Source: a virus (Duplodnaviria; Caudoviricetes). From it: DNA of 44,406 nucleotides. The notes beneath the pieces were generated by a model that worked only from the letters and a program-made list of their open reading frames with translations, did no database searches and was not told the DNA's origin. The stretch is from IMG/VR virus record IMGVR_UViG_3300031965_000059, positions 1 through 44,406 of that record; one strand, written 5' to 3'. Within the stretch, counting starts at the first letter, position 1; every line of letters begins with the position of its first letter. This document shows positions 18,356 through 35,947 of the stretch, in pieces. Both the position numbers and the translations under genes were made by a program.

Positions 18356-18395
18356 TCCGCCGGAACCGGCATTCTCACGCCCCTGAATCGAAATC
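18356..18395 (-). repeat. 40-bp conserved motif, copy A (8 nt downstream of the recombinase 1 stop)
   Basis: Minus strand GATTTCGATTCAGGGGCGTGAGAATGCCGGTTCCGGCGGA; 33/40 identical to 35908-35947. Confidence 0.8.
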
Positions 18396-18403
18396 TGAGG
18401 CCA

Positions 18404-19378
18404 TTAGTAGTGATCCCCAGGGCTCACCCGCACGTGGGCCAGGATCGCGCGCTCTTCGGCCCCTGACATGGCGTAGCGCCGGAGCATCGCCGTGCTCTTC
18501 CAGCCGGCCAGCGTCATGAGGTCCGCGTCCCCGCCGCCGCGCTTGCGCCAGTTGTGAGACCACGTGTGACGCAGAACGTGGGGATGGAGGCCGATGATCC
18601 CTGCCGCTTGGCCCCGCTCGACAACGATGCGTTGGAGCTGGCTGAAGGAGAGGCGGCCGCCTATCCGCGAACCAATGAACAGCGCCGTAGCGTCGGGCTT
18701 GGCGTATTCGTCGCGGACGCGCAGGTAACGGTCGAGCTCGACTGCAGCCTTGGTGCCGATGGGAACGTGGCGGATCGCCCCGCCCTTCGCCCGGCGAACG
18801 TGGAGCAATGGTCCTGCCTGCGGTTCGCGTGACCCGCGCTCGCCCCACTGCACGTCGTCAACGTCGAGGGCTAGGAGCTCCTGGCGCCGTAGCCCCGTGT
18901 CGAGCATGATTCGGATGATCGCCCGGTCGCGTCGGTCGTACCACGACGTCCCTTTGCACGTAGCTAGGAGCCTCGTGCCTTGCGTATCGCTCAGGACCAT
19001 CGCCGGCGGTGGCGTCGACTGCGGGCGCTTCATGTTGCGCATCGGGCTGTCCGGGATCTCCTCCTCGTCCTTCAACCAGCGCCAGAACGTCCTGAGATGG
19101 TCGAAGCGTGTCTGCGCCGTGCCAGCGCTGCGGGTCTCCTGCTGGTCGATGACGTAGGACTCGATGTGCTCGCGCCGGATAGCGCTGGGGTCGAGGGGCA
19201 TCCCGCGGTCTGTTAGGAACCGGGACAGGGAGCGGAGGCTCTGCTCGTAACTGGAGAGTGTCATCGGCGAGACGTTGCGGGCGCGGAGATTGCGCAGGTA
19301 CGAGTCGGCGTAGGAATCGAGCGTTCTCCGGCTCGTGGCTGGCGGCTGGTCTATTATTCCAGGAATTATTCCGTTCAT
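18404..19378 (-). CDS. Tyrosine recombinase/integrase 1 (XerC/D-like)
   Basis: SAM-like N-domain; catalytic R (TGLRRQE), K (AKGG), HxxR (HVLRH), W (LAGW), Y (LRRY). Confidence 0.93.
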   Translation of the reverse strand: MNGIIPGIIDQPPATSRRTLDSYADSYLRNLRARNVSPMTLSSYEQSLRSLSRFLTDRGMPLDPSAIRREHIESYVIDQQETRSAGTAQTRFDHLRTFWRWLKDEEEIPDSPMRNMKRPQSTPPPAMVLSDTQGTRLLATCKGTSWYDRRDRAIIRIMLDTGLRRQELLALDVDDVQWGERGSREPQAGPLLHVRRAKGGAIRHVPIGTKAAVELDRYLRVRDEYAKPDATALFIGSRIGGRLSFSQLQRIVVERGQAAGIIGLHPHVLRHTWSHNWRKRGGGDADLMTLAGWKSTAMLRRYAMSGAEERAILAHVRVSPGDHY

Positions 19379-20544
19379 TCTTCGTCCTCCTCCTGTAGCA
19401 CGTACTGGATACTGGGCCCGCCAGCGGTCTTCTCGGCGCGCTTCTGCAGTCTACCAGCGGCCACGAGCGTTTGCAGGTACGGCTCGAGCGATCGCAGCGT
19501 CATCTTCGTGGCGCGCAGCAGGTCGCGCTGCTTCATCGTCCCGCCGCCGGCGCGCACGACGGAGACGACGCGGTCGAGGGCCTCGCGGTCCCGGTCGCGG
19601 TCGTTGCTCATGATCTGGCCGACCAGGTCGCGGGCGCAGTCGAAGGCGTAGGAGTACATCTGGATCGCCTGCTCGACGGCCTTCGGGTGCAGCTCGCCCA
19701 GCTCGGCGGTTCCCCGGCTGGCCATGATGCCGATCGCGAGCTTGACGATCTGCGTGCCGGCGCGCTGCGACAGGTCGGCCGGGTCCGCGTTCTCGTTCTG
19801 CCACGCCTGCTCGAACTTCACCAGCCAGCGCTCGAGCACCTCAATGCCGGCGCCGGCGCTGATCTCGCCCTCGTACTCGGAGAGCTGGCGCAGGTGCTGC
19901 ACGAGCGAGGCGCGCTGGTGGGCGGCGACGCTGCGGTCGCCGACGTCGTGCATGAAGTGGCCGAAGCTGTTCTCCGGGCGCTTGGCCGTGACGAAGAGCC
20001 ACCGGGAGATGAAGCCGCCGCGGACGTCCTCGCGCTGAGCGTCCTGGATGAACCAGATGGGCTTTGCGGCCGCGAGGATCGTGACGGCCGGCCGGTGGAT
20101 GCGGTACGTCTGGCCCATCGTGCGGCGCGTCACGGTCGGCTCAGAGTCCCAGAACTGGGTGATGGTCTCGATCGTGCCGGCGTTGTAGTCGCGGCGGAGG
20201 GCCTTCAGCACGGCGCCCATCTCGCTCCAGCGCATGATGCCGGATGGTCGCTCGGAGAGCTGGGAGTAGAGCGCCTCGCGGGTGAAGTCCTGTGGTAGTG
20301 GGAGCGTCTCGTCGACCTCATTGAGCAGGGAGATGGGGAAGCCGGTGGCCGTGGTCTTGCGGAGGCCGGAGCCGCCGTAGAAGCAGACCCAGATGGCCGG
20401 GTAGACGCGCTCCCAGCCGGCGTCGAAGTAGACGCGGTTGCCGAGCGCAGCGCAGCAGGCGGCGACGGCCGCGTACCTGTGGAACAGTACGGGCGCATCG
20501 GTGCGGGCGCTGCAGTAGTCTTCATACGCCTTGACGAACGCCAC
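19375..20544 (-). CDS. DUF3987/YfjI-like replicative helicase-type P-loop protein with C-terminal wHTH
   Basis: TDAP..FH N-terminus, GGSGLRKTT Walker A, FTREAL, GGFISRWLF motifs. Confidence 0.75.
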   Translation of the reverse strand: MAFVKAYEDYCSARTDAPVLFHRYAAVAACCAALGNRVYFDAGWERVYPAIWVCFYGGSGLRKTTATGFPISLLNEVDETLPLPQDFTREALYSQLSERPSGIMRWSEMGAVLKALRRDYNAGTIETITQFWDSEPTVTRRTMGQTYRIHRPAVTILAAAKPIWFIQDAQREDVRGGFISRWLFVTAKRPENSFGHFMHDVGDRSVAAHQRASLVQHLRQLSEYEGEISAGAGIEVLERWLVKFEQAWQNENADPADLSQRAGTQIVKLAIGIMASRGTAELGELHPKAVEQAIQMYSYAFDCARDLVGQIMSNDRDRDREALDRVVSVVRAGGGTMKQRDLLRATKMTLRSLEPYLQTLVAAGRLQKRAEKTAGGPSIQYVLQEEDEE

Positions 20545-20633
20545 ACGGCCTCCAGCCTGGTGTCATCGGCCTCCTGCCCTCGCGTATCCGGCGTAGCCGT
20601 GGGGACTGCGCCGGACGTGCGATCACAGGATCG

Positions 20634-20765
20634 CTACTCGCCCTCGGGCTTCTCCGGCTCGGTGCTGGGCTCCGGCGCCGTGGGCTCGTCGCCCTGCGGC
20701 TCTGCCGGCGTCTCAGGCTGGGCCTGCGGCTCGTCCGCCGTTGGTGCTGGCGTTTCTCCGAACAT
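20634..20765 (-). CDS. Small acidic Pro/Glu-rich peptide (43 aa)
   Basis: Perfect AAAGGAGGT SD; MFGETPAPTADEPQAQPETPAEPQGDEPTAPEPSTEPEKPEGE; below the ORF-track cutoff. Confidence 0.6.
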   Translation of the reverse strand: MFGETPAPTADEPQAQPETPAEPQGDEPTAPEPSTEPEKPEGE

Positions 20766-20801
20766 GGTGGTCTACCTCCTTTCGTCAGTTTCGAGTGGTG
20801 G

Positions 20802-21365
20802 CTAGGTGGGTAGCGGAAGCTGGGCCGCGTCGGGCTCGCGCTCTACGATGCGGGTGTCCTGCTCTTCGCGTTCCCAGACCACAACCGCGCTGGGGAACGG
20901 CGCTCCGGCGTTCGACCCGCCGAAGTGGACGCGGCCAGGCAGGAAGCGCACGAGGGTCAACAGCGGATGCGCAGCGATGCGGTCGTAGGCTGCTTCCTTC
21001 AGGACGAACCGCTGCCACATCTTCGTGTCGGTGCGAGCTGGGATCAGCGCGACGACGCGCTCGGCATGGCCAGCCTCGACCTCAGCGACCGCCTTCTCAA
21101 TCCACGCGGGCATCTGGCGACCGTAAGGCGGGTTGCAGTACACCCTTCCACGCCACGGAGCTGCTAGGCCGTCGAGCGCGGGGCACGAGCCGTCGTAGAA
21201 CACCCCGCCCCTGCTGTGGATGCGGTAGGCCGAGTAGTGGTGTTCTCGCTGGCCGCACGGATCGAGGTCGAAGGGGCCGAACTCGGCGTCCAGGGCGTCG
21301 AACAGCGCCTCCGGCGTGGCCCAGTCGGTTGTCAAAGCGACCTTCATGTAGCCTCGGTCAGTCAC
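20802..21365 (-). CDS. Phage DNA N6-adenine methyltransferase (Dam-like)
   Basis: DWATP..LF, FDLDPC, DGL..W, CNPPYG, LIPARTDT, FL.GRV.F and APFPS motifs. Confidence 0.9.
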   Translation of the reverse strand: MTDRGYMKVALTTDWATPEALFDALDAEFGPFDLDPCGQREHHYSAYRIHSRGGVFYDGSCPALDGLAAPWRGRVYCNPPYGRQMPAWIEKAVAEVEAGHAERVVALIPARTDTKMWQRFVLKEAAYDRIAAHPLLTLVRFLPGRVHFGGSNAGAPFPSAVVVWEREEQDTRIVEREPDAAQLPLPT

Positions 21366-21705
21366 CTGTCACCACCATGACGTAGCGCCGCGCTTCATCC
21401 GACCAGCGCCAGTCCAGCACCCTGTCCGTCAGCGAGAGCACGTCGCCCTCCGGCGCGCGTTCGTAGCGCAGCGCGATCTTCTGGCGGACCGGCTCAGCGT
21501 GCAGGTAGCAGGCGTACTCCGCGCCACGCCAGACCATGCGATGCCGCTCAGGGCACCGCGGCGGGCGTACGTCGCTCTCACGCAGCGCAGAGGCGGGCTC
21601 GGCCAGCAGGCCGGGGGCCTTGCGCAGCAGCCACGCGACCACTGGGTTGAGCAGGCTGTAGTGTCCGAGCACGGTGTTGCCGGCGTCGGGAGCGGGGTCA
21701 ACCAC
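21358..21705 (-). CDS. Hypothetical protein
   Basis: 8-nt overlaps on both sides; CPERH...YACYLH. Confidence 0.55.
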   Translation of the reverse strand: MVDPAPDAGNTVLGHYSLLNPVVAWLLRKAPGLLAEPASALRESDVRPPRCPERHRMVWRGAEYACYLHAEPVRQKIALRYERAPEGDVLSLTDRVLDWRWSDEARRYVMVVTGD

Positions 21706-22111
21706 GGTCGAGCTCCACCTTCGCTAGCAGGGGCTCGGCGAGGGCCAGGGCATCGTCAATGCGCGGGAGACTAGGGTGTTCCAAATGGAACATCGCATCA
21801 ACGAACACGTCATGTGCCTTATCGTTGTCTACCCCGTCATCTAGCGCATCGCTGTAGGCGTCCATGTTATCCGTGGCCCACAGCCCAGCAGATGTGACAA
21901 GATCATGCCTCGCTCCATCCAGCGCCCGTAGCGCCGCAGCCAGGGCGCGGGCGGCAGCCAGACCATCCGCCGTCGGGCTGAACCCTAAGCGTTCGAGCTT
22001 GTGTGAGGCAGGCGCGGTCTCCCACAGCAGCCAGGTATCCGGCCATTCGGGGTCGGCCTGCTCTGCTTCGGCTGCCGCTATCAGCGCCGCAAGCTGCGTG
22101 GGGTCAGTCAT
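21698..22111 (-). CDS. Hypothetical protein
   Basis: 137 aa; overlapping operon arrangement. Confidence 0.55.
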   Translation of the reverse strand: MTDPTQLAALIAAAEAEQADPEWPDTWLLWETAPASHKLERLGFSPTADGLAAARALAAALRALDGARHDLVTSAGLWATDNMDAYSDALDDGVDNDKAHDVFVDAMFHLEHPSLPRIDDALALAEPLLAKVELDRG

Positions 22112-22604
22112 GGCTCAGGGCCTCTCGTAGCTTCCGAATGCGTGTGTGGCCTGGACACTCACATTGTTCGCCTTGGCCATTCATCTCATGCCAAGAATCG
22201 ACCGCACGAATCGCGACAGACCAAGGACGACCTTCAGCCTCCAATTCTGCGATGCGTTGCTCCAGAGCGTCTACCTGGAGGAGGAGGCGGCGGCTGAAGT
22301 CTATGTCTGATTGCGTCCATTGACCGCCGGGATCGATTCCTTCCGGCAACGGGACCATCTCATTGAGAAAGGCGAGGTGCGCCTCCCGCTCCTCGCGTGT
22401 AGGGTGGGTGTGTACGCGGCAGGGATCGTCCGTATCCCCGCCCTTGCCTGTGAAACATGCGGCGCAGAGGTCGAGCGCATCCTCTGGCGGTACGCGGAGC
22501 GCCTTCCCGCAGCACCGGCATGGTGTGTCAATCAGGTCGTCACGTGTAGGCTGGCTGTCGGGACTCTGCCGTGTCACCTGGCTCCCAGGCCCGTCGGTGA
22601 TCAC
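22104..22604 (-). CDS. Hypothetical Cys-rich/coiled-coil protein
   Basis: GTGA-coupled start after GGGGGAG; CRCCG...CAAC and LEQRIAELEAE. Confidence 0.5.
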   Translation of the reverse strand: MITDGPGSQVTRQSPDSQPTRDDLIDTPCRCCGKALRVPPEDALDLCAACFTGKGGDTDDPCRVHTHPTREEREAHLAFLNEMVPLPEGIDPGGQWTQSDIDFSRRLLLQVDALEQRIAELEAEGRPWSVAIRAVDSWHEMNGQGEQCECPGHTRIRKLREALSHD

Positions 22605-22771
22605 GGTCTCACTCCCCCGTGATAGACCGCAAGCAAGATCGCGGCGTGCTCCCAGCAGATCAGTCTGATGCCAAGACCAGGTATTTCCCACGCATCTATT
22701 CCCCGCCGCGAACCCAGGCCGTCGAGTTCGCAGACGATACCGTAGATGCCTCCCTGCGTTATTCGCTTCAC
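22601..22771 (-). CDS. Hypothetical protein (56 aa)
   Basis: GTGA overlaps at both ends; MKRITQGGIYGIVCELDG... Confidence 0.5.
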   Translation of the reverse strand: MKRITQGGIYGIVCELDGLGSRRGIDAWEIPGLGIRLICWEHAAILLAVYHGGVRP

Positions 22772-23457
22772 GGCCACAGCCCGTGACACTCGGCTGAGAA
22801 CCGCCAGTGATACCACGAGCCGTAGTCGGCGTAGAGCTGGTAGCCCACGGCGATGTTCGTCGCTGGGTCGTACAGCGCCGCTGGCCCGTCCACCTTGTCC
22901 CAGTGGCTCGCGTAGTGAATCTGCATGAGGCCCAGGCTCCCTCCGTTCTCCGCGTTCGGGTCCCCGCTGCTCTCGCACTGGATCACGGCGAGCGCCTCCG
23001 AACAGGGCCAGGGGTAGGCGCAGACGAGCGGCTCCCATTGCGCCTCCACTGGGCCGTTCCCCACTGGCGGATAATCCGAGCGCGCAGCCGATGGTGGAGG
23101 CGCTCCTCTGTCCTCGAAAGGAGCCTCCACATCGAGGGCCACCGTCCCACGCCCCATAGGCCCAGGGCTAACAGGCCAACGATACACCCAGCGTAGAGTA
23201 GTGAGCGCATCTCCAACTCCTTCTATCCCCCACGCAGCATCGGCTAGGGCATTCGGCTCAGGCAAATCTCGCACGACAGCCGCTCCGCTTCGCGGAAACT
23301 GCCGCACGAATGTAGCGTGATCGGCCTGATAAGGCGTCTCACCCAGAGTATGAATCGTCTCACGCATTCCTCCTTCCCGCCCGGCGACTCCGGCAGCCGC
23401 CGCGACGATCATCGCGGCCAGGACTGCTGAAAGGAGCGACCGAGCTGGGCATCTTAT
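22768..23457 (-). CDS. Secreted/membrane-anchored lytic transglycosylase (SLT/Rpf-like), probable ATA start
   Basis: C-terminal AVIQCESSGDPNA, GLMQI, LYDPATNI and W..W motifs; extending to ATA 23457 (ATAA overlap, GGAG SD) adds the signal-like RCPARSLLSAVLAA. Confidence 0.75.
   Translation of the reverse strand: MRCPARSLLSAVLAAMIVAAAAGVAGREGGMRETIHTLGETPYQADHATFVRQFPRSGAAVVRDLPEPNALADAAWGIEGVGDALTTLRWVYRWPVSPGPMGRGTVALDVEAPFEDRGAPPPSAARSDYPPVGNGPVEAQWEPLVCAYPWPCSEALAVIQCESSGDPNAENGGSLGLMQIHYASHWDKVDGPAALYDPATNIAVGYQLYADYGSWYHWRFSAECHGLWP
22983..23210 (-). CDS. Possible nested alternative-frame membrane protein (75 aa)
   Basis: AGAAGGAG SD before ATG 23210; MRSLLYAGCIVGLLALGLWGV transmembrane segment then a basic tail; wholly inside the transglycosylase gene. 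Confidence 0.3.
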   Translation of the reverse strand: MRSLLYAGCIVGLLALGLWGVGRWPSMWRLLSRTEERLHHRLRARIIRQWGTAQWRRNGSRSSAPTPGPVRRRSP

Positions 23458-23633
23458 CTGTGTTCTCCGTCGCTAGGTTCGCGGCGCTTGGCGATGTCCA
23501 CCGTCTCGCCGCGAAACGTCATGCTGATGCCCGTGATGCCGCCCGGCTCGTCCACGAGCTTCTGCATCTCCCGCTGGAACTTGCGGACGGCGCTCTCAGC
23601 GACCGTCGGCCTCTTGCGCTTTCGCGTTCCCAT
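23454..23633 (-). CDS. Hypothetical small protein
   Basis: MGTRKRKR... after a purine-rich SD; in-frame GTG at 23741 is an alternative start. Confidence 0.55.
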   Translation of the reverse strand: MGTRKRKRPTVAESAVRKFQREMQKLVDEPGGITGISMTFRGETVDIAKRREPSDGEHR

Positions 23634-23737
23634 GCTTCCCTTCCCTTCTCCCGCTAGGCGGGCTAGGTGGCTGGCTGGCAGGGGCTTCGTGCGAGGCCCA
23701 CCCCTGATTCGGCCCCTCGCGGCCTCACAACGGGTAC

Positions 23738-24070
23738 TCACGCGCTTTCCCCGGTGTTAGCATCCTCTCCGGCCCCTACGTAGGACGCTGGGGGTTCGTC
23801 CACTCGGCGCAGCGCCAGTCCGCCAAGTTCATAGTGATCCTGCTCATAGTCCGAGGCGGCTGCGATCTCTTCCTTGCTTGGCCTATACCACTCGAACTCC
23901 GGCGTCAGACCGTCCGGCACCCTGTACCACGCTGATACCCCCGCTCCTTCGCAGTCCGTCTCAGATAAGACGCGGCACGGCACGATCATCGGCGTCGTTC
24001 CTTCGTCAACGTCTACCGTGACGGCGCGGTGTCCGCATTCGGGGCAGGTGTAGGTGTTGATCGCGCTCAT
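23738..24070 (-). CDS. Hypothetical Zn-ribbon phage protein
   Basis: ATGA-coupled; YTCPECG, D.D.GTTP, EWYRPS and H...GGL motifs. Confidence 0.65.
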   Translation of the reverse strand: MSAINTYTCPECGHRAVTVDVDEGTTPMIVPCRVLSETDCEGAGVSAWYRVPDGLTPEFEWYRPSKEEIAAASDYEQDHYELGGLALRRVDEPPASYVGAGEDANTGESA

Positions 24071-25086
24071 CGCGGCATCTCCTGATCCCCCAGGTCGCCG
24101 GGCAGCGGCTTCCCTGGCCGGACTCCGGCGTCTTGCTTCCCGTGCCACGGAACTCCCACGAGGCGGCAGTCCTCGCGCAGCGCACGCACCCATGCGAGGT
24201 CGAGCGGGCGATGGTGCGGTCCCGACTCGCCGCCGACGATAACGAGGTCGAGGCGGGGCACGAGCACCCTCATGCGGCCGCCGCTGTCCCCTCTGTCGCA
24301 ATCTCCGCCGCAGTATTCGTCATCGTGTGGTTTGTGCAGCACGTTGGGTTCCCTGCCGCCACACTGCGTACAATATGGCCCGCCGCGTCCTGTCGCCTTC
24401 GCCAGCCCTTCGTCCCACTTGCCTTCAAAGGCGTGGTGTATCCAGTCGCCGTCGGTAACGGCTTCTAGGTATTGGTCGAAGTCCACCGGCCCCAGGGCAG
24501 GCTCGTAGCTCACGAACCGCCGCGCCGCAGGCGTCTCCAGCAGCAGCGGGATACGCTCGTCTGCCGTCTCCTGGTCTTCCACCGAGACGCCCAGCATGAC
24601 GTTGGGGCAACCCGTCGGCGCTACGTCGCGCGGCAAGTCGTACTCGCGCTCGAAGGCCGATTGGAACCAGCCGATGTGGAACTGGAAGTCCTCGTCGGTG
24701 AGGAGGGCGCGCATCCGCTCGGGCCGCTTCGTGAGCAGCATGAACGTGTGCCAGTGGCACGCCGCCATCACGCCCCAGATCATCTGCAGCGCCTTCACGT
24801 CGATGTCCTCGTGGCACCAATCCGTCATGTCGCACACGAAGATGCGGCTCGGCGTCTTCAGCCGCGCCCACGCCGCGAACTCCGACTCCCTGAGCTTCCA
24901 CGTCACCCGCCCGCGGTTCGCCTCGGTGTACGGCACGCCGTTGCCGAAGCGCAGGTTCAGCGTCTCGGCGTAGCAGTTGCGGCACCCCCGCGATACCTTC
25001 GTGCAGTACCAGCCGCGCTGCCCGTCCGCCTCTGCGTAGAGGGGGTTCGAGCTGTAATCGCACCAGGAGATGCTTGTCCGCTGCAT
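24067..25086 (-). CDS. DUF5131 (phage Gp37/Gp68) radical-SAM-like protein
   Basis: TSISWCD..NP, CTKVSRGCRNCYA, FVCDMTD, LLTKRP, GVSVE, RFVSYEP and VIVGGESG motifs. Confidence 0.9.
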   Translation of the reverse strand: MQRTSISWCDYSSNPLYAEADGQRGWYCTKVSRGCRNCYAETLNLRFGNGVPYTEANRGRVTWKLRESEFAAWARLKTPSRIFVCDMTDWCHEDIDVKALQMIWGVMAACHWHTFMLLTKRPERMRALLTDEDFQFHIGWFQSAFEREYDLPRDVAPTGCPNVMLGVSVEDQETADERIPLLLETPAARRFVSYEPALGPVDFDQYLEAVTDGDWIHHAFEGKWDEGLAKATGRGGPYCTQCGGREPNVLHKPHDDEYCGGDCDRGDSGGRMRVLVPRLDLVIVGGESGPHHRPLDLAWVRALREDCRLVGVPWHGKQDAGVRPGKPLPGDLGDQEMPR

Positions 25087-27388: not shown

Positions 27389-27865
27389 CTACCCCTGCCT
27401 CCTACGAAACTCCGCGATCAGCAGCGCCTCTGCCCGTCCCTGGTCGCTCCGCCGTCCGAGATCAACGCCCGGGAAGAGCCGCTGCGCCTGCAGGTACGAT
27501 GCGTTCTTGTCCTTGCCGTCCTTGCCCACGCCGTCGAGCATCACGCCCTTCCAGCGCTGAGGCGTCACGACCTCGAAGGGGATCGCGAGCGCCGTCAGCG
27601 CCATGAGGTAGATGCCCTTGCCGTAGCCGATCGACAGGCTCGACTGCGCGCTCTGGCCCGGCCGCGTCGACACGGCCTCGATCGCGGCGACGGCGTGGCC
27701 GGCGTGGCGAAGCAGTACGAGCACGTCTCCAAGGATGTACTCGCGCCGACGTCCCTTCCCCTTCGGTACCCACATCGTCGGCGCGTCGTAGACTTCGGCG
27801 CTGTAGCCCTCGCGCAGGATGGCGATGGCGCCCGAGAGGCCAGGGTCGATGCCTATGACGTTCAT
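27389..27865 (-). CDS. RuvC-like Holliday junction resolvase
   Basis: IGIDPGLSGAIA, AAIE, VTPQRWK and DQGRAEALLIA motifs. Confidence 0.88.
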   Translation of the reverse strand: MNVIGIDPGLSGAIAILREGYSAEVYDAPTMWVPKGKGRRREYILGDVLVLLRHAGHAVAAIEAVSTRPGQSAQSSLSIGYGKGIYLMALTALAIPFEVVTPQRWKGVMLDGVGKDGKDKNASYLQAQRLFPGVDLGRRSDQGRAEALLIAEFRRRQG

Positions 27866-29448
27866 GCCGTAGCTCCCGCGGCGGTCAGGCGCGCGAGAAC
27901 CTGTGACTCGACGGCTGAAACCTCGTCCTCCTCAGCGCCATGCGGTTGTAGCTCACGCTCGACGCCATTCCTGACGCCGGACTTCATGCCATGTCCGCCC
28001 TCGAGCAGGAGTCCGGCCTTTCTTAGATCGCCAGCGGCTTGCTTCCAGCGCTGGTCGGTGCCGCCGCCCTGGCTGCCGCTGAGCGCCCTGGAGATTTGCG
28101 AGACGGGGCAGTATCTGTCCTGGCCGATGAGGTACTCGATGAGCGTTAGCGCGTCGGGCGTTAGGCTGCCGATCTTGTCCATGAGGCGGTCGCTCGCCTG
28201 CTGGAGGTACTTCTTGCGGAGCGCCTCCGGCGGAGCAACCTGAGCAACGCCGTTGCCGCCACCGACGGGTATGCGCGCGAGCACTTCCTGGACGATCGCC
28301 TCTTGGTCGACATGGCCCACGGCACCGCCGGTTCCGTTCGAGCCGAGGAGCTGCTTGATCTTGCGGAAGCTCTCAGCATCCACCTTGCCCGCTCGCACCT
28401 CGGCGGCGAGCCGCTCGTTGTGCTCGGTGGTCTTCTTCAGCTCGCCCTCGAGGTCGCTGACCTTGTTGCGAAGCTCGACGAGCTCCTGCCAGCCAGGCCC
28501 GCCCTTCGTTGCAGGACCGCTCTGCTCCTCCTCTAGCTCTTCCGGCTTTGCCAGCCGAGCGCGCAACGCTGTGACGTCGGGCTTCGCCTGAATGAGCTGC
28601 ACTTCGCCAACCTGCGCCGTCGCGCCGCCGTGGAAGGTCCGCCGCTCACGCACCCGGATCGTCGTGAAGCACTTCAGTTTCTCCGGCGACCACACGAAGG
28701 CCGTGCCGTCAGGCAGGCGCGGAATGCGGGTCTTGAACTCCTGCAGCCGCGGCCAGTCGTCCTCTTCCAATACGCCCTCGAACATGTCGAGCAGCGCCTT
28801 TCGGTCCTGGGGACCGACGGTGCGAAGGGCGATGAGCGTGTCGAGCTGCGTGAGCACGTCCTTCGCCACGGCCGCGCTGCGCTGCGAGATGAGCGTGACA
28901 CCGAGGCCGCGGTTTCGGCCCATGCGCACGAGCCGCTCGACGGACTCGTAGACTTCCTGCATCTCCGGCCGGCGGGTCTGGGGGACGAACTCTGTCGCCT
29001 CCTCGATGAAGACGTGCCGGGCGCACGTGTTGCGGTTGCGCCGGTAGAGCTCGCGGCAGAAGTCGCGTGTGAACTGGCGCCACGCCGTCTTCGACAGCTC
29101 GCTCAGGTCGACGATGCAGGAGATGTTCTCCTCGACGACCGCGAGCGCAACGGCCGCGCCCATGTCCCGTTCGATGGGCACGTCCCCGTGCTCGCCGCCG
29201 AAGACGACGATCGGGTAGCCGCTCCTCTTTCCGTCCGCGTTCGACCGAAGGCCGTAGTGGACGCCGACCGGGTCCAGTACGATGAACGGCATCCCGCGCT
29301 CAGCGAACTCCTCTTCGATGACGCCGGCGGTGTAGGTCTTGCCCGCGCCCTTCTTCGCGAGGATCGCGATCGTGTGGGTGAGCACGTCCTGGGGCAGCTC
29401 GAACGGCTGTCCGTCCTCCGTGGTGCCGATGTTGAGTCCGCTGGTCAT
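27862..29448 (-). CDS. HerA-like (DUF87) P-loop ATPase with C-terminal wHTH
   Basis: AKKGAGKTY Walker A, VLDPVG, VFIEEATEF Walker B, GRNRGLG..LISQR. Confidence 0.85.
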   Translation of the reverse strand: MTSGLNIGTTEDGQPFELPQDVLTHTIAILAKKGAGKTYTAGVIEEEFAERGMPFIVLDPVGVHYGLRSNADGKRSGYPIVVFGGEHGDVPIERDMGAAVALAVVEENISCIVDLSELSKTAWRQFTRDFCRELYRRNRNTCARHVFIEEATEFVPQTRRPEMQEVYESVERLVRMGRNRGLGVTLISQRSAAVAKDVLTQLDTLIALRTVGPQDRKALLDMFEGVLEEDDWPRLQEFKTRIPRLPDGTAFVWSPEKLKCFTTIRVRERRTFHGGATAQVGEVQLIQAKPDVTALRARLAKPEELEEEQSGPATKGGPGWQELVELRNKVSDLEGELKKTTEHNERLAAEVRAGKVDAESFRKIKQLLGSNGTGGAVGHVDQEAIVQEVLARIPVGGGNGVAQVAPPEALRKKYLQQASDRLMDKIGSLTPDALTLIEYLIGQDRYCPVSQISRALSGSQGGGTDQRWKQAAGDLRKAGLLLEGGHGMKSGVRNGVERELQPHGAEEDEVSAVESQVLARLTAAGATA

Positions 29449-29639
29449 AGGCGTACCCCTCTCGTCATGGGCTGGCCGCGCGTGCCCCTGCTCCCGCTCA
29501 CCGGTGGCGGCTCCGGCGCCGCCGCCCCCAATGCCTGCTCGATCACGTGACCGCAATAGAGGCATTGCTGGTAGGGCCCGTACCAATCCTCAGACCGCTC
29601 CATCGCGTTCCGCGATCGACACCGTGGACACGGTGGCAT
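29445..29639 (-). CDS. Small Zn-ribbon protein
   Basis: CPRC...EDWYGPYQQCLYCGHV; ATGA-coupled to the ATPase gene. Confidence 0.65.
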   Translation of the reverse strand: MPPCPRCRSRNAMERSEDWYGPYQQCLYCGHVIEQALGAAAPEPPPVSGSRGTRGQPMTRGVRL

Positions 29640-29645
29640 CGGGAG

Positions 29646-30851
29646 CTACGCTTCTTCGGCGACGGCGACCGGCTCCAGACACGCCGCGATGACCGCCCGC
29701 GCGACGTCGGCGGTGATCCCTTTCGCGTGCCAGTTGCCTTGTTCGTTCACCGCGCCCGGCACGCTGCGCAGGAGCTTCGCGAAAGCGGGGACCCCGTGGG
29801 CCTTCTTGTAGTCCGCCACCGCGTTGTGCGCCTGCTTCTGGAGCTGCTCGAGGTCGGCCTCGTCTTCGGCTGGTGGCTCTTCGACGGCTACCGGCTCCGC
29901 GATCGGTTCCTCTTCCGGCTCCAACGTTGTAGGAGGAGAAATCGGAACCGGCGGCGGCTCGATGTCTGCCTCGCCCTCTTCCGTGAGCGTCGGCTCGATC
30001 GGCGGTAGATCGGTAACGTCGACGGCCTCGCCTTCGATGATGCTCGGGTCGTCGTCCGGGAGCATCTGCGCTGTCTGGTCGATCGCGGGGAGCTGTGCGA
30101 GCGCGAGGATGGCGTCCGGCGCCATGATGCGCACACCGGTGCGCGTCGCCGTCCACACGAGCATCTGCTTCGGGTACTTCTTCCAGTTGACGCCAGTAGC
30201 CAGGTCGGCACGCTTCGCGTCCTCCATCGTCGCTTCGAAGACCTGCGAGCGCCCCTTGTAAGTGACGCGTACCTTCGCGCGCTCGGTCGTGCGCTCGAGG
30301 ATCTCGACGCCGGCGTCCGGGTCGCGCGCCTGCATGAGCCCGACCTTGAGCTGCGTCGAGGTCTCCGGCCTGCCCTTCACGACGTAGATGTGCGAAAGCG
30401 CGGCCATCGGTTGCACGCCCAGCTCGCGGCCGTAGAGCATGATCACTGCCGCCTCGCCCGCCGTCATGGCCCTGTCGCCGATCTTGGGCAGCAGCGATTG
30501 GCCGGCTATCGCGGTGCCCGCGATGGCCTTGATCATCGACAGCTCGTCGCTCGTCGGCAGCAGCGCGGCCGGCGGCTGGACGCGGTAGGGGACGATCGCC
30601 CGGCTGTTCTCGTCTCCGTTCATCGTGTGCTCCTTCCGTGATGGTTCTAGGACGTTTCGCGCGTGCCAACAGTGGCCGTGCGTGCGGTAGCCCAGGCAGT
30701 TGCAGACCGCGTTCGGCGGCTCCAGGGTGTAGATCGTCTTGTACTCGCGGTCGGACGTACGCGACTTGAACGTGCGCTCGCGAACCTGCCGCCGCCGGGC
30801 GTCACGCCGGCGTTCGCTGGTACGCTCACGCTGTCGGGTGTCCGTTGCCAT
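29646..30851 (-). CDS. RecT-like single-strand annealing protein with in-frame N-terminal SWIM-type Zn finger (internal start at 30623)
   Basis: GRELGVQPMAAL.HIYVVKGRP, T.EDAKRA.L and NWKKYPKQML motifs; upstream CNCLGY..HGHCWH; AAGGAG SD before ATG 30623. Confidence 0.75.
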   Translation of the reverse strand: MATDTRQRERTSERRRDARRRQVRERTFKSRTSDREYKTIYTLEPPNAVCNCLGYRTHGHCWHARNVLEPSRKEHTMNGDENSRAIVPYRVQPPAALLPTSDELSMIKAIAGTAIAGQSLLPKIGDRAMTAGEAAVIMLYGRELGVQPMAALSHIYVVKGRPETSTQLKVGLMQARDPDAGVEILERTTERAKVRVTYKGRSQVFEATMEDAKRADLATGVNWKKYPKQMLVWTATRTGVRIMAPDAILALAQLPAIDQTAQMLPDDDPSIIEGEAVDVTDLPPIEPTLTEEGEADIEPPPVPISPPTTLEPEEEPIAEPVAVEEPPAEDEADLEQLQKQAHNAVADYKKAHGVPAFAKLLRSVPGAVNEQGNWHAKGITADVARAVIAACLEPVAVAEEA

Positions 30852-30858
30852 CGTGGGT

Positions 30859-31560
30859 TCATGCCCTTGCGGCGATGCCCTCTTCACTCACGGCCTGGAC
30901 GCCGGGGATATCGAGATCGCCCTTCATGGCGCGCGCGAGATTGTTCAGAAGCGTCATGTTCGGCGCGAGCAGCGCTGTCGCCTGACTGCCATCGGCAACG
31001 GCTTTCACCAGCGCCGCCAGGTCCGTGACCTCCGCACGCCACGTCACGCGCGTCGTGATGCCCGGTGCTGCCGGCGCCGGTGCCGTGACCTCAAGGGTCG
31101 GCACGTTTTCCGCCCGCTGTTCCAGCGTCTCCGCGCGAGTTTCCTTTCCCTTCTCCCTGGCGGCCTCGGCCTGCTTCCGCAGGCGTTCGCGCTCCGCCTC
31201 TTCACGCTGGCGGAGCTTCTCCTGCGCCTCCTGGCGCTGCCGCTCGCGGTCGCGGCTGAAGGTGAGCATCGCGTTCTTGATGGTCAGCTCGGCCTTCGAC
31301 AGCCGGTCGGTCGCCGGCTTGAACAGCCCCAGCACCCGCGTCTTCGCTTCGTCGAGCGGGCGAGTGACCGACTTGCGGAGGGACTCCATCTGCTTCTGCT
31401 GTGCCTTGATGGTCTGGAGCAGCTCGGCACTCGCCCCATATTGGATGTCGCTGGTGATCGTGAACTGTTCCGCCGACGCCAGGAGCGCGATGCTCTCCTC
31501 GTCAGCCCGCGCCGCCACCTGAGAGGCGGCTTCTATGGTCTCGGTGATGTCGGTGGTCAT
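30859..31560 (-). CDS. Coiled-coil protein of the recombination module (possibly Gam-like)
   Basis: 233-aa long helix with C-terminal W.AEVTD...IPGV; between exonuclease and annealase. Confidence 0.6.
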   Translation of the reverse strand: MTTDITETIEAASQVAARADEESIALLASAEQFTITSDIQYGASAELLQTIKAQQKQMESLRKSVTRPLDEAKTRVLGLFKPATDRLSKAELTIKNAMLTFSRDRERQRQEAQEKLRQREEAERERLRKQAEAAREKGKETRAETLEQRAENVPTLEVTAPAPAAPGITTRVTWRAEVTDLAALVKAVADGSQATALLAPNMTLLNNLARAMKGDLDIPGVQAVSEEGIAARA

Positions 31561-32591
31561 CTCTTCCTCCTAGACTTCAATAGTTTCTGTGCATCCTCTA
31601 GCGTGATCTCGTTCGTGTTTGCCTCAACCTCGGGCGCCCGGTGGGCCCAGTCTTCGTCCTTCGCAATCGCCTTCGCCTGGTCGCACCACGGCCGGGCGTC
31701 GCAATACCCCTGGCAGCGACGGCTCACGCCCGGCACATGCTCGACCCGTCCCTTGCCCGTGTCGTCGTTATCGTTCAGGAAGAAGATCGCATCCTCCCCA
31801 CCGCCACCCCGCGGCGCTTCCGCGCCGAAGACGGCCGTTGCGCGCTTCGCGGGCCTGCCGCCCTTCGTCGGCAGGTAGACCTTCCACTCTTCGCCGTGAT
31901 ACCAGCGCTCCTCCGGCGAACACGGGGGCCAGCGGTGGTGCTTGCGGGCGTTCTGGTGCAGCGCGACGCGGCTCCCCAGGTAGCTCTGCGCCTTCTCCTC
32001 CGACCAGAGCGGCAACGAGTAGCGAAACGATGGCGCCGGCGGGTAACGATCGCCGGGCGACTCCGCCGCCTTCTGCGCGCGGTCGGCCTTCCAATCGAAA
32101 GGCAGGAACGGTATCACCGCAAGGCTCGTCACGTCGAAGCCGTGCCGTCGGAACAGCTCGGCGTACAGGTTGAGCTGCGCGGCCCACTCGCGATCGCGGC
32201 TACCGTGGACGATCGACCAGACCGACGTCACCTTGTAGTCGACGACCGCGCCCTCCTGGTCGATCCCGATGATCTCGTACAGATCGGCCTGGCCCGTGAC
32301 GCGCCACCCCGCCACGTCCATGAAGAGGCGCTCTTCCGCGAGCACGTTCTCGGCCGCGAGCGCAGCGCGCTTGAGGTCGTTGTGCACGGCCTGCCCGACG
32401 CGACGCCGGATGAGTGAATAGTCGGAGGCGTCGTACACGATCTCGTGGTCGTGCAGCCGGCCCAGCTCCAGCACCTGCGGCGGCTGGATCAGCTCCGTGA
32501 CGCTGATGTCGCCCTGCCGCGGCCCGTAGGCGTCGTACGACAGCCACGCCATGACGGGCGCCGGGAGGTTGAACCTGTTGGTGAGGATCAA
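31557..32591 (-). CDS. Cas4-like PD-(D/E)XK exonuclease
   Basis: TTGA-coupled start MILTNRFNLP; ISVTELI, EERL, GQADL, VDYKVT, QLNLY and C-terminal RCQGYC...C. Confidence 0.85.
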   Translation of the reverse strand: MILTNRFNLPAPVMAWLSYDAYGPRQGDISVTELIQPPQVLELGRLHDHEIVYDASDYSLIRRRVGQAVHNDLKRAALAAENVLAEERLFMDVAGWRVTGQADLYEIIGIDQEGAVVDYKVTSVWSIVHGSRDREWAAQLNLYAELFRRHGFDVTSLAVIPFLPFDWKADRAQKAAESPGDRYPPAPSFRYSLPLWSEEKAQSYLGSRVALHQNARKHHRWPPCSPEERWYHGEEWKVYLPTKGGRPAKRATAVFGAEAPRGGGGEDAIFFLNDNDDTGKGRVEHVPGVSRRCQGYCDARPWCDQAKAIAKDEDWAHRAPEVEANTNEITLEDAQKLLKSRRKR

Positions 32592-32824
32592 CGCTCCTCC
32601 TCGTACGGCTCGTAGTGCGGAACGTCGGCGGAGCGCGCGAGCACGAAGTTGAAGGTGCGGGCGATGAAGGAGGCCGCGATCTCGGGGCGTTCGGAGTCCC
32701 GCCGCTCCTTCTCGAAGGCCTGGTGCGCCGTGTCGATCAGCTTGTAGCCGTGTTCGAGGTACGCGTTGGCCTTGCGCGGGCCGCACGTCTTGACTTCGAC
32801 AGCCCAGGTGAGATCCATCTCCAT
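32588..32824 (-). CDS. Hypothetical protein
   Basis: AAAGGA SD; ANAYLEHGYKLI motif. Confidence 0.6.
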   Translation of the reverse strand: MEMDLTWAVEVKTCGPRKANAYLEHGYKLIDTAHQAFEKERRDSERPEIAASFIARTFNFVLARSADVPHYEPYEEER

Positions 32825-32837
32825 GTCAGCATTCCTT

Positions 32838-33071
32838 TCACGGCAGCGTCTGCCCGTCAAATAGAGCCCGCCGCGCGAGGGCCTCGCGCCCCACGTCGTA
32901 GAGCGTGTAGTAGGCCCCGGCGATGCAGGCCATCAGGAACACGTGTCCCCGCTCGTTCAGCTCGCGGGCGAACTGTCGCCGGAGTTGCGACATTCGAGCG
33001 AGGCGGCGCGCGTAGAGCTCGGCTACCTCGTCCGGCGTCAGGTCGCGCAGCGTCAGGGTCGACTCGTTCAT
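32838..33071 (-). CDS. Hypothetical protein (77 aa)
   Basis: TAG-ATG junction; helical composition. Confidence 0.6.
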   Translation of the reverse strand: MNESTLTLRDLTPDEVAELYARRLARMSQLRRQFARELNERGHVFLMACIAGAYYTLYDVGREALARRALFDGQTLP

Positions 33072-33344
33072 CTACGTCTCGAACTGGCAGTTGCAGTGGC
33101 ACTCGCACTCGCAGTCGGGGCGATCCGGTTCGTCCTCTTCCCAGCAGGCCGCGCAATCGTCGTTGTCGGCGCATGTGCAGCGCCCCAGCCAGCAGGCGGG
33201 CTCCATGCGCGTCGCGGAATACGCCTCGGTGACGACGAGCGTGTCGTGGCCGCAGTCTGGGCAGCCGTCTTCGCGGACCCGGCGCGCGTAGTCGCGGGTG
33301 CGGGTGCTCGGTGACGCGCCCTCGGTGTAGGAAGGATCGCTCAT
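33072..33344 (-). CDS. Cys-rich acidic small protein
   Basis: 12 Cys in 90 aa including CECECHCNC; ATGA-coupled. Confidence 0.55.
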   Translation of the reverse strand: MSDPSYTEGASPSTRTRDYARRVREDGCPDCGHDTLVVTEAYSATRMEPACWLGRCTCADNDDCAACWEEDEPDRPDCECECHCNCQFET

Positions 33345-33559
33345 CGCGCCACGTATTCCCGCCCGGCGTCGGTCATGCTGTATGTCCTGATGCCGAGTCG
33401 GTAGTGGCGCTCTACGAGTCCGAGGCGGGTCAGCGTTTCCATCGTCCGTCGTTGAACGCCGAGGGGCGCTGTAACGTGCTGAGCGTCGAAGCTGACCAGC
33501 TTCCGCGCGGTGCGCAGCAGGGCATCCTTCTGCGCCGGGGTGATCGTCCCTGTAGTCAC
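33341..33559 (-). CDS. Small winged-helix DNA-binding protein
   Basis: ITPAQKDAL...RTMETLTRLGLVE...YSMTDAGRE. Confidence 0.7.
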   Translation of the reverse strand: MTTGTITPAQKDALLRTARKLVSFDAQHVTAPLGVQRRTMETLTRLGLVERHYRLGIRTYSMTDAGREYVAR

Positions 33560-33846
33560 GAAGATGCGTGCCCTTCGCGGATGCGCTTCCTCTGCTGGCG
33601 CCGCGGCTGTACCTCGTAGCCGTCCACGGACTGCGGCGTGACTTCGATGCTGTACTGTTCGCCGATCCAGAAGCGGGTCGGCTCGTCGACGGTCGGAAGC
33701 GCTTCCTTGATGACGCTGTCCGCCTTCCTGAACGCCTTCGCCGCTTCCTTGTTCTCGAGGTAGGTCTCGATCTCCTCTACGAGATCGAGACGGTCAAGCG
33801 GCTTATCCTCGAATCCCTTCTGGCCGCCGTCCGTAACCTTCGGCAT
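33556..33846 (-). CDS. Hypothetical protein, first clear gene of the early operon
   Basis: AAAGGAG SD; 96 aa; GTGA-coupled downstream. Confidence 0.7.
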   Translation of the reverse strand: MPKVTDGGQKGFEDKPLDRLDLVEEIETYLENKEAAKAFRKADSVIKEALPTVDEPTRFWIGEQYSIEVTPQSVDGYEVQPRRQQRKRIREGHASS

Positions 33847-34234
33847 GGGCGTCTCCTTTCATTGAGAACGCCCACCCTGCGACGGACCGGCGAAGGCACC
33901 TGAGGAGGCATGCCGAAGACGTCGCGGGGTCAGCGGGGAACAGCACCGGCGGCGTCCCTGCCGGCCCATCGCAGGATGGGCGTTGCTGCTGGGTGGTGTC
34001 GGGAGCGCCCCGGAGGAAGTCGAAGACCGGGGCGCCCCCTTGCGACTCGGGCGTCGGAGGGGGAGGATTCCGGCGCTCCGAGGGGGCGCGTTCGCTGATC
34101 GCTCTGAGCCGTGGCGGCGACTCGAACGGGAACGCGGCCCCTCGGAGGGTCGGACCTGGTGTTCGCTTCCCCTTACCCTGCCTATTTAGCAGGGCAAGGG
34201 GTGCGGTCATGGTCTCTTTGGCCTCCAACATCGT
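33847..34234 (-). ncRNA. Candidate structured leader RNA of the early operon
   Basis: Four long stems; nearly all non-Watson-Crick positions are G-U pairs on the minus-strand transcript. Confidence 0.55.
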
Positions 34235-34240
34235 GAGGCT

Positions 34241-34269
34241 ATTCTAAGAAACTTCCTATCCTTTGTCAA
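34241..34269 (-). promoter_or_regulatory. Leftward early promoter
   Basis: TTGACA-N17-TAGAAT on the minus strand. Confidence 0.85.
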
Positions 34270-34298
34270 GGGGCTTGGGGAGGAAAGTAGGAAATATC

Positions 34299-34327
34299 TT
34301 GACAGGCCGTCCTGGACGCCCTAGAAT
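34299..34327 (+). promoter_or_regulatory. Rightward (repressor) promoter
   Basis: TTGACA-N17-TAGAAT on the plus strand, back-to-back with the leftward promoter. Confidence 0.85.
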
Positions 34328-34334
34328 ACGTGGT

Positions 34335-34556
34335 GTGAAAGCTTACGCACGGCTCCTATGCGAGCGCGTCGACGGCCATGCCGTCGTAGACGTTGCGAAG
34401 GAATGGGGTATCCCGCGCTGGGTGCTGGATGATGGGATCAGCGGCAAGGTGAACGCCCCCAGCGCGAAGTACCTGCCCGCCGTGGCGCGCGGGCTCGGCA
34501 TGACGGTCGAAGAACTGCTCGCCAAGCTCTCCCCGCAGGAAGTACCAGCGACATGA
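34335..34556 (+). CDS. XRE-family repressor, probably leaderless (GTG start)
   Basis: VVDVAKEWGIP...ISGKVNAPSAKYLPAVARGLGMTVEEL HTH; GTG 7 nt after the -10 box; no SD. Confidence 0.75.
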   Translation: MKAYARLLCERVDGHAVVDVAKEWGIPRWVLDDGISGKVNAPSAKYLPAVARGLGMTVEELLAKLSPQEVPAT

Positions 34557-35056
34557 CAATCCGCGCCTCGGCCAGTGAGCGCTTCTGGGCCAAGACTACT
34601 TATCGCGGGGATGGGTGCATCATCTGGGGTGGCGCTACCGGGGGCGGGGGGTACGGACTCTTTACGTTCGAGGGTCGCCTACAGCTTGCCCACCGCGTTG
34701 CGTGGATGCTGGAGAAGGGCCCGATCCCTGTTGGACTGACTCTCGATCACCTGTGCAAGACGCGCCTGTGCGTAAACACGGAGCATTTGGAACCCGTGAC
34801 TGCGCTTGAGAATATTAGGCGGGCCAACGTCGGCCGCCGTCTCACGAGGTGCCGAAAAGGCCTGCATGAAATGTCTGGCGCTAACATCTACATCTGGAAG
34901 AATCAGAGGATGTGTCGTTCGTGCTTCCTAGAGGCCAATAGGCGCTACGGCAAGACCTACCGTGAACGGCATCCAGAGATCGAGGCTGCACGCTGGAAGC
35001 GAAAGCAGGCACGCCGCAAGGCGGCGGCGGCGCACATCGTGGAGGTCTCTGCTTAG
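34553..35056 (+). CDS. HNH endonuclease with C-terminal Zn finger
   Basis: RFWAK, CIIW.G...GYG, AHRVAW, LDHLC..RLCVN.EHLEPVT..EN, then CRKGLH...CRSC. Confidence 0.9.
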   Translation: MTIRASASERFWAKTTYRGDGCIIWGGATGGGGYGLFTFEGRLQLAHRVAWMLEKGPIPVGLTLDHLCKTRLCVNTEHLEPVTALENIRRANVGRRLTRCRKGLHEMSGANIYIWKNQRMCRSCFLEANRRYGKTYRERHPEIEAARWKRKQARRKAAAAHIVEVSA

Positions 35057-35899
35057 ATTCCTACGCGGCCTGATGAGCCGTGGCGGGATCGCTTCCGGCT
35101 CTACGAGGTCTCGCAAGGACGCGCCCGCTCCACCGCCCGCGCCTACGTCTACGACGCCGCGCTCTACCGCCGCTGGTGCTTCGCCCACGGCCTCGACCCC
35201 GATCATGCCTCCCGCGATGATCTCATGGCCTACCTCGACGAGCACCGCGCCCGCTACACGCAGGCGTCCGTCGTCCGCCGCCTCGCCGCGATTCGCGCCT
35301 ACTACGCCTGGCTCGGAGGGCACGATCCCAGCGTGGGCATTCGCCTGCACCAGCCCACCGATCCTGTGCAGGCCCCGTTCTCCGAAGATGACCTCCGGCT
35401 GATCCTCGCCGCCTGCCGCCGGGTCCAGGACCGGGCGCTCGTCCAGGTGCTGATCGACACCGGCCTCCGCCTCGGCGAGCTCGTGTCCTTCCGACTGCGC
35501 GATGTCGACTGGGGAGCGGGCAGGCTCAGGGTGCGCGGGAAGGGGGACAAGGTGCGATTGCTGGCGTTGGGCGATCAGTCGCAGGCAGCGCTCCGGCTCA
35601 GCATGGACGGACGCGACTACCCCTGGTACTCGCAGCGCCGCCACGGTCCCCTCACCGGCGACGGCGTGTACCGCCTGATGCGCCGGCTAGCCGCCCGCAC
35701 TGGGCTCCACGTCCACCCCCACCGCTTCCGCACGACGTTCGCGTGCCGGTTCCTCGAACGGTCGAACGGTGACGTGGAATCGCTGCAGGTGCTGCTGGGC
35801 CACAGCAAGCTCGAGACCACGCTGCGGTACACGCGCTGGGGCCGTGTCGAGCGCGCCCTCGCCCAGCAGCGCCGCGTCGCACTAGGCGACAAGCTCTAA
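35057..35899 (+). CDS. Tyrosine recombinase 2 (XerD-like), probable ATT start
   Basis: TGLRLGE, GKGDK, HPHRFRTT, LLGHS and LRY motifs; the open frame from 35057 encodes the first SAM-domain helices (GRARSTARAYVYD...) upstream of the first ATG; GGAGGT SD at 35041. Confidence 0.9.
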   Translation: MPTRPDEPWRDRFRLYEVSQGRARSTARAYVYDAALYRRWCFAHGLDPDHASRDDLMAYLDEHRARYTQASVVRRLAAIRAYYAWLGGHDPSVGIRLHQPTDPVQAPFSEDDLRLILAACRRVQDRALVQVLIDTGLRLGELVSFRLRDVDWGAGRLRVRGKGDKVRLLALGDQSQAALRLSMDGRDYPWYSQRRHGPLTGDGVYRLMRRLAARTGLHVHPHRFRTTFACRFLERSNGDVESLQVLLGHSKLETTLRYTRWGRVERALAQQRRVALGDKL

Positions 35900-35907
35900 C
35901 GCCCGTG

Positions 35908-35947
35908 GATTTCGATCTGAGGGCCTTAGAATGCCGGTTCCGCCGGA
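35908..35947 (+). repeat. 40-bp conserved motif, copy B (8 nt downstream of the recombinase 2 stop)
   Basis: GATTTCGATCTGAGGGCCTTAGAATGCCGGTTCCGCCGGA; inverted relative to copy A. Confidence 0.8.

Follow-up and report, generated by a model that had tools for sequence, protein, structure and literature searches.

A pair of likely recombination sites in inverted orientation beside the two tyrosine recombinase genes of a soil metagenome phage

Introduction

The phage genome IMGVR_UViG_3300031965_000059 (44,406 nucleotides, analyzed over its full length and referred to here as the window) carries two tyrosine recombinase genes, int1 and int2, each followed by a copy of the same motif, and the two copies (A and B, respectively) lie in inverted orientation at the ends of the block that holds the replication genes. 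The question raised by this locus is whether A and B are sites of recombination and, if so, whether the block between them can be inverted. A sequence-only reading had proposed either an invertible segment served by both enzymes or two related attachment or resolution sites. The comparisons described here indicate that A and B form a real, non-random pair and are likely recombination sites, as judged from the sequences of one genome and one partial sister phage.

Sites A and B form a matched pair of dyads

The positions and letters of the two 40-bp motifs were as had been reported, with A running from 18395 to 18356 on the minus strand and B from 35908 to 35947 on the plus strand, inverted with respect to each other. 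Each starts 8 nt past the stop codon of its recombinase gene, and 33 of the 40 positions are identical. The next best ungapped match to either 40-mer within the window reaches 24–25 of 40 positions and the next best pair of 40-mers of any kind 29 of 40, and A and B make up the longest inverted repeat reported in the window (52 nt, 77%). The site reaches 12 bp further to the left than had been noted, into the stop codon. The perfect blocks of 9 and 15 bp described earlier are present, but the sequence taken for a divergent core belongs to an arm and the center of the site is the 9-bp block; the centers of A and B are identical, contrary to the proposal of two sites with different cores.

The intergenic regions that contain the two sites can be aligned in direct orientation as well, with 26/35 matches, and each site is therefore a dyad. 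With the spacer placed by symmetry, the dyad can be read as two 13-bp arms around an asymmetric 8-bp spacer, ATTTCGAT, which is identical in A, B, and the copy found in the sister phage L173 (see below), with a 14-6-14 reading fitting equally. Within a site the arms match at 6/13 positions in A and 9/13 in B. The same-side arms of A and B match at 8/13 and 7/13 positions and the cross-site arms more closely, with A-left versus B-right at 11/13 and B-left versus A-right at 10/13. This arm match of 21/26 was reached by none of 2,000,000 random pairs of 34-mers in a test that was chosen after the pattern had been seen (post hoc) and is not independent of the repeat. Past the right arms, outside the block, an 18-bp flank is identical at 17 of 18 positions between A and B.

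Across 220 scanned loci, a match to the site better than 23/34 was found in L173 only. The exact consensus pattern gave no matches in viral contigs, and the 16 matches to a looser pattern, none of which lies near a recombinase gene, were taken as chance. No tRNA, tmRNA, or Rfam origin of the motif was found. Past the stop codon of a helix-turn-helix gene (17588–17770), the plus strand at 17766–17800 reads TTTCGA and then AGGGGCG, a faint inverted likeness to site A with the spacing off by one base; the possible third site at 17772 was noticed by eye, found no further support, and was set aside. The genome has just two copies of the 11-mer GATTCCTACGC, at 19318–19308 (minus strand) and 35056–35066 (plus strand), near the 5′ end of each recombinase gene and in different frames.

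Site B is conserved behind int2 in a sister phage

Int1 and Int2 share 26% identity, in line with the divergence noted earlier, and both retain the full catalytic set that had been read from their translations (Arg164/Lys198/His267/Arg270/Trp293/Tyr302 in Int1 and Arg138/Lys162/His222/Arg225/His249/Tyr258 in Int2). Both match PF00589 together with an N-terminal SAM-like domain, and an arm-binding domain is absent from both. The closest PDB entries of the two proteins are XerA and XerD, and Int2 also matches PDB entry 5vfz, Gp33, which we take to be the Brujita integrase.

As to the grouping of int2 with a repressor, an HNH endonuclease gene lies between the gene in question and int2, and the first gene product, which has no Pfam or PHROG match, appears repressor-like from its position and conservation, with relatives (53–64% identical) that directly precede Int2 homologs. 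The int2 frame has no ATG, GTG, or TTG start and opens at an ATT codon at 35057. By eye, the 5′ ends of Int2-family genes (window 35040–35060; L001, L173, L174, L175, and L179) likewise lack ATG, GTG, and TTG and open at ATT, ATA, or ACG, ∼10 nt past a GGAGG that lies at the upstream gene's end. This suggests a conserved non-AUG initiation (or readthrough) that limits integrase in the Int2 family. Between the window (34213–34246) and L173 (2420–2452), a 28-bp stretch with a GCCTC-N9-GAGGC palindrome over the start of the leftward promoter is identical, a candidate operator.

A check for the motif downstream of homologous recombinases had been suggested; it was present in 1 of 10 non-self Int2-family loci, the closest (L173), and in no Int1-family locus. 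L173 belongs to a partial sister phage with an Int2 that is 65% identical; past the int2 stop codon 36 of 36 bases are identical, after which the similarity ends abruptly. At four-fold degenerate sites the two phages agree at 66 of 115 positions (57%) in int2 and 104 of 138 in the lysin-like gene. By this comparison site B appears to be under selection, because all 36 bases are kept against these proportions of four-fold sites, although the final six codons of int2 likewise reach 89%. Its location, with int2 on one side and the end of the convergent late operon on the other, is the classic position of a phage attachment site (attP), and B is likely the attP of Int2. The sister phage also appears to share the helicase (52%), and an Int1 ortholog was not evident in it: nothing exceeded 46% identity in either search, and none was found among the best 120 of 863 matches or in 10 clusters, which is indirect evidence. 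B therefore needs no Int1/Int2 pair, because it is kept in a phage apparently without Int1. Two virus records with Int2 homologs, G001 (circular) and G002 (linear), contain one recombinase each and no site.

A bacterial attachment site (attB) matching the motif was not found in 401 Dehalococcoidia genomes. The consensus pattern with two mismatches occurred in 6 of the 401 genomes, and the reversed control in none; by their letters, five of these six candidates resemble threonyl-tRNA synthetase codons and the sixth is unrelated, and all were taken as chance. A three-mismatch match that was opened consists of threonyl-tRNA synthetase codons and was rejected. Integrated relatives were found neither by Int2 alignment in the 401 Dehalococcoidia genomes (E 1e-55) nor by helicase alignment in 401 Chloroflexota genomes.

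Elsewhere in the Int2 family, L176 contains four tandem tyrosine recombinase genes (7073–12091), one with a doubled N-terminal domain, and several Int2 homologs of ∼400 residues carry the same N-terminal extension. In L178 an atypical tRNA-Ser(GCT) (1845–1932) is convergent with the Int2 homolog and lies 30 nt past its stop codon. A resemblance of the B flank to the 3′ end of this tRNA was discarded, since the orientation is wrong and the likeness is lost in L173.

Int1 belongs to a tRNA-targeting integrase family

The ATGA overlap that was described as coupling int1 to the helicase gene (DUF3987) is present in the sequence. Relatives of Int1 were collected as 160 loci (the best 80 of 115 and the best 80 of 512), and the identity of Int1 to proteins directly adjoining a tRNA at the end of an element reaches 46%. 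In 69 of the 80 genome loci the gene is preceded by a tRNA that ends no more than ∼330 nt away, and four loci show an att duplicate beginning at the tRNA anticodon arm. Upstream of family members a shared motif scores a median of 19.7 (75 loci, 41 of which were used to train the matrix), compared with −7.8 upstream of the window int1 and a maximum of 8.2 anywhere in the window. The window int1 lacks the upstream tRNA, the att duplicate, and the 5′ motif of the family. Of 101 conserved columns, Int1 also departs from the family consensus at 16, compared with 1–13 in each of 55 relatives, and the departures include the region that we take, after XerD, to be the predicted DNA-recognition helix. 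Judged against its relatives, Int1 has lost the att context of its family. Site A in turn was found past the stop codon in none of the 160 loci. Nor does it occur in the 13 loci examined of 14 from a Limnocylindria search, the locus of the unpublished G818 being excluded; 12 of the 13 are closer to Int1. The Int1-family genes in L083–L162 adjoin many different tRNAs, 38 divergently and 31 co-directionally, and their upstream motif overlaps promoter-like spacing.

In two viral relatives of the helicase no recombinase gene follows the helicase gene, with one recombinase per record, and in one of them (L205) a GTGACA/TGTCAC cluster lies directly past the helicase stop codon. This arrangement, seen in one of the two relatives, suggests that int1, site A, and the small genes were inserted between the helicase gene and the origin. 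The stretch at 15500–19375 of the window, bounded by the helicase gene and the origin-like repeats, has the look of an insertion; apart from int1 and site A it carries two small genes and six genes on the plus strand. Codons 3–8 of int1 are weakly similar to the sequence near 15515; possible insertion junctions at 19360 and 15515 were noticed by eye and dropped for want of further support.

The origin itself is predicted from repeats, which include an 8-bp repeat in three tandem copies and a long palindrome rich in A+T (15469–15495 and 15325–15365), and the cumulative GC skew has its minimum near 15 kb. It lies 3.0 kb from A and 20.5 and 23.7 kb from B around the circle, which places B 1.6 kb off the opposite point.

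Assembled reads and predicted products of inversion

The sole sequencing run containing the phage is a soil metagenome (X1), possibly the one from which the record derives. Contigs from about 66/100 of this run, in which rare variants are dropped, were compared with positions 17200–37100 and 35800–36060 of the window. The phage is present as a single 44,307-nt contig that closes the circle, unbranched, at a depth of 145.9. Among the loose ends listed, a single one falls inside B; it reads as site A and adds no depth, and is therefore the other copy in the same contig. A freely flipping segment is not supported by this sample, where one unbranched circle and no inverted junction were seen. Both isomers in about equal amounts were not present among the contigs of this one run, and neither was a host-phage junction at the sites. 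Free flipping of the kind known from the 2-micron plasmid is thus unlikely in X1, because an equal mixture of isomers should split the contig at both sites, to judge from the behavior of assemblies. Rare isomers may be compatible with the contigs, from which such variants are dropped.

Strand exchange by tyrosine recombinases requires identity of the spacers, and identical asymmetric spacers in inverted orientation permit inversion and forbid deletion. The identical inverted spacers of A and B would therefore give inversion rather than deletion. When a crossover within the spacers was simulated, both products were more symmetric than the present sites, with within-site arm matches of 11/13 beside int1 and 10/13 beside int2 (6/13 and 9/13 before). 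The earlier suggestion that inversion could alter the C terminus of the gene at 35926–36066 does not apply to a crossover in the spacer, which leaves that gene intact.

Possible functions of A and B

The best explanation, which we put forward tentatively, is that A and B both represent one simple type of crossover site, with B likely serving Int2 as its attP and A being a further, compatible copy that would allow a rare or regulated inversion of 17.5 kb. The 13-bp arms would bind a recombinase and strand exchange would take place within the spacer. B would be the attP core of an arm-less integrase that is weakly expressed behind the repressor, and would pair with a host attB; A would be its compatible counterpart, next to an integrase that was recruited and is expressed from the early operon. 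This lytic-operon enzyme, Int1, would drive the flip alone or with Int2. The flip would turn the early operon from the origin and late genes toward the terminal end of the late operon. The genes at 17823–18328 would come to lie behind the repressor operon, with no gene broken. Such a flip would have to be rare, directional, or state-specific. The earlier proposal of recombination sites gains support from the corrected geometry (an identical asymmetric spacer and four related arms) and from B being strictly conserved in the sister phage; free flipping is not supported.

Several observations weigh against this explanation. The symmetry of the single sites is weak, since 139 of 44,245 window positions reach 9/13 and A reaches only 6/13, and a simple crossover site leaves the 17/18 identity of the outer flanks unexplained. 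The site is absent from 9 of the 10 non-self Int2-family loci, and the sister phage keeps B, apparently without an Int1 ortholog. In the X1 contigs no joint links the two sites (15 of 17 joints), the depth is flat at 145.9 across 35890–36060, and B is covered by this one contig only.

The inversions known from phages are those of small tail-fiber cassettes. If the control and replication genes were flipped as one block in a programmed way, this would constitute a new wiring of the lysis-lysogeny switch or a new way to change replication mode, based on a site with a second role as attP and on an integrase taken from a different family of elements. Among the open-access papers listed in literature searches, none showed a phage arranged in this way. 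Even without a flip, two enzymes of 26% identity on one type of 34-bp site would provide a compact test case for a shift in recombinase specificity. A more elaborate version, in which the helicase-coupled Int1 inverts the origin-proximal A against the near-antipodal B during theta replication, giving double rolling circles and concatemers or a lysis-lysogeny lock, seems very improbable. One round of such inversion would yield mostly one isomer, so that a population from a single induction may look unbranched; the single isomer in X1 nevertheless counts against it.

A somewhat unlikely alternative is that the two motifs are separate attachment or resolution sites that do not invert in vivo, with Int2 using B and Int1 using A, both serving one host attB spacer or dimer resolution, and the arm differences blocking recombination of A with B. 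Each site is indeed fixed at the end of its own enzyme's gene, the same-side arms match at only 8/13 and 7/13 positions, the enzymes are 26% identical, and no inverted form was seen in X1; PMC3694055 discusses the duplication of int-attP cassettes as a step in evolution. Against this, the relatives of Int1 have their att at the 5′ side, with the crossover in the tRNA anticodon arm (four duplications), unlike A, and identical spacers with related arms would predict cross-reaction for arm-less enzymes; moreover, no attB was found in the 401 Dehalococcoidia genomes and no host junction in X1. We regard it as doubtful, too, that the motif is a regulatory or RNA element, either an operator or activator site, marked by a LexA-type box and a −10-like hexamer, or a hairpin at the mRNA 3′ end through which recombinase expression is controlled, and we retain this idea because it would explain the shared flank. 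TAGAAT, which forms the −10 element of the two main phage promoters, is present in B, but no sigma-70 promoter was called at A or B, A has GAGAAT, and neither has a −35 element. Both outer flanks match at 7 of 8 positions the GAAC-N4-GTTC sequence that PMC3323433 gives as the Gram-positive LexA box, and of five Chloroflexota genomes three have such a box before lexA and one before recA; one-mismatch boxes are nonetheless at chance level in the window (17 found versus 14 expected), and the right half of the box is lost in L173. B folds as a UUCG-capped RNA hairpin (z −2.7), a terminator-like hairpin overlaps the A flank, and promoter-like sequence was noticed by eye past the stop codon in several Int1 relatives, whereas A folds poorly (z −1.0), B folds equally on the opposite strand (z −3.2), and no Rfam match was obtained.

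There is a slim chance that A is a relic, a B-type site copied by one past recombination or gene conversion as int1 and a 3.9-kb block entered between helicase and origin, with no present function. Int1 is absent after the helicase in both helicase relatives, origin-like repeats directly follow the helicase gene in L205, and Int1 is an outlier in its own family, known from a single genome. The differences between A and B are, however, not scattered: the spacer (8/8) and outer flank (17/18) are kept and the inner arm bases differ, the arms cross-match, and the frame and catalytic set of Int1 are intact.

Comparison with characterized recombinase systems

Cre/loxP and XerC/D-dif use a dyad of ∼34 bp with an asymmetric spacer, and the phage sites can be read in this layout; an XerC/D-like fold and two paralogous enzymes are common to both. 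As expected of lox-like sites, the adjoining genes encode recombinases with an intact catalytic set and without an arm-binding domain. Unlike loxP and dif, the arms here are symmetric at only 6–9 of 13 positions within a site, and unlike XerC/D-dif, the arm types are swapped between A and B rather than kept on the same side, and no dif-like conserved intergenic match was found in a host. The fim element of ∼0.3 kb carries a promoter and lies outside its recombinase genes. The FimB/FimE switch of Escherichia coli likewise combines two tyrosine recombinases with one inverted pair of sites; in the phage, in contrast, the inverted segment would span 17.5 kb and carry both recombinase genes, whose products belong to different families.

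A parallel in geometry is Flp/FRT of the yeast 2-micron plasmid, in which two inverted sites on a circle are served by a tyrosine recombinase; inversion by Flp just after one site has been replicated leads to double rolling-circle replication, and the isomers are equal in amount (PMC3147054). The phage origin that is predicted from repeats would lie near one site and nearly opposite the other, similar to the layout that lets Flp start this replication. The phage differs from the plasmid in showing one isomer rather than equal two, in having two XerC-like enzymes rather than one Flp, in lacking long inverted repeats, and in its poorly symmetric arms. Phages BPs, Brujita, and Charlie, which have integration-dependent immunity systems (PMC3694055), resemble the int2 locus in a small arm-less integrase transcribed behind the repressor with no evident directionality factor; their attP lies inside the repressor gene, whereas the candidate site here is past int2 and is accompanied by a second enzyme and site. 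Int1 is similar in protein sequence to tRNA-targeting XerC/D-family integrases of Chloroflexota and Actinomycetota elements, unlike which it is helicase-coupled and followed by site A. IME1 of Dehalococcoides (bioRxiv 10.64898/2026.09.15.751708) is an element for comparison.

Genome context and additional features

The terminal repeat of the record defines a closed circle of 44,279 bp with a G+C content of 67%. It encodes a capsid protein, a terminase, a large internal virion protein, replication and recombination genes, and the two tyrosine recombinases. Named phages are distant relatives only, the best among the matches listed being 33–35%, and no RNA dataset is among the runs listed as containing the phage. 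The host is likely a member of the Chloroflexota or Actinomycetota, the phyla that dominate the record titles of the Int1 relatives. Family searches with the two small genes downstream of A named no family. The coordinates of all features are collected in Table 1.

Table 1. Coordinates of sites, genes, and other features in the window
Feature	Position	Strand	Remarks
Terminal repeat of positions 1–127	44280..44406	.	127 nt; closes the circle
Predicted origin: GTGACA/TGTCAC repeat cluster and AT-rich palindrome	15238..15495	.	3.0 kb from A; not part of the block
Two small cysteine-rich genes (89 and 79 residues)	17823..18328	-	Downstream of A; library scans gave no function
Outer flank of A	18356..18373	-	17/18 versus B flank; overlaps a 7/8 LexA-box match (18363–18374) and a terminator-like hairpin
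Site A dyad: 13-bp arm from int1 stop codon, spacer ATTTCGAT, 13-bp arm	18374..18407	-	Spacer at 18394–18387
Block between spacers, predicted invertible segment	18395..35908	.	17,514 bp; int1, replication and recombination genes, divergent promoters, repressor-like gene, HNH gene, int2; inversion itself not observed
int1, XerC/D-like tyrosine recombinase of tRNA-targeting family	18404..19378	-	324 residues; ATGA-coupled to helicase; without the family's upstream tRNA/att
DUF3987 primase/helicase-like gene	19375..20544	-	Immediately upstream of int1; library matches
Divergent sigma-70-type promoter pair	34241..34327	.	Both TTGACA-17-TAGAAT
Repressor-like gene	34335..34556	+	Inferred; no library match; GTG start by eye
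HNH endonuclease gene	34553..35056	+	Between repressor-like gene and int2; library matches
int2, XerA/XerC-like tyrosine recombinase without arm-binding domain	35057..35899	+	280 residues; predicted ATT start
Site B dyad: 13-bp arm from int2 stop codon, spacer ATTTCGAT, 13-bp arm	35896..35929	+	Spacer at 35909–35916; likely attP core; 32/34 in L173
Zinc-ribbon-like gene	35926..36066	-	46 residues; 3′ end overlaps right arm and flank of B
Outer flank of B	35930..35947	+	First 6 nt alone kept in L173; 7/8 LexA-box match at 35929–35940
Likely endolysin gene, last of late operon	36069..37211	-	Convergent with int2; inferred from position and by eye; no library match

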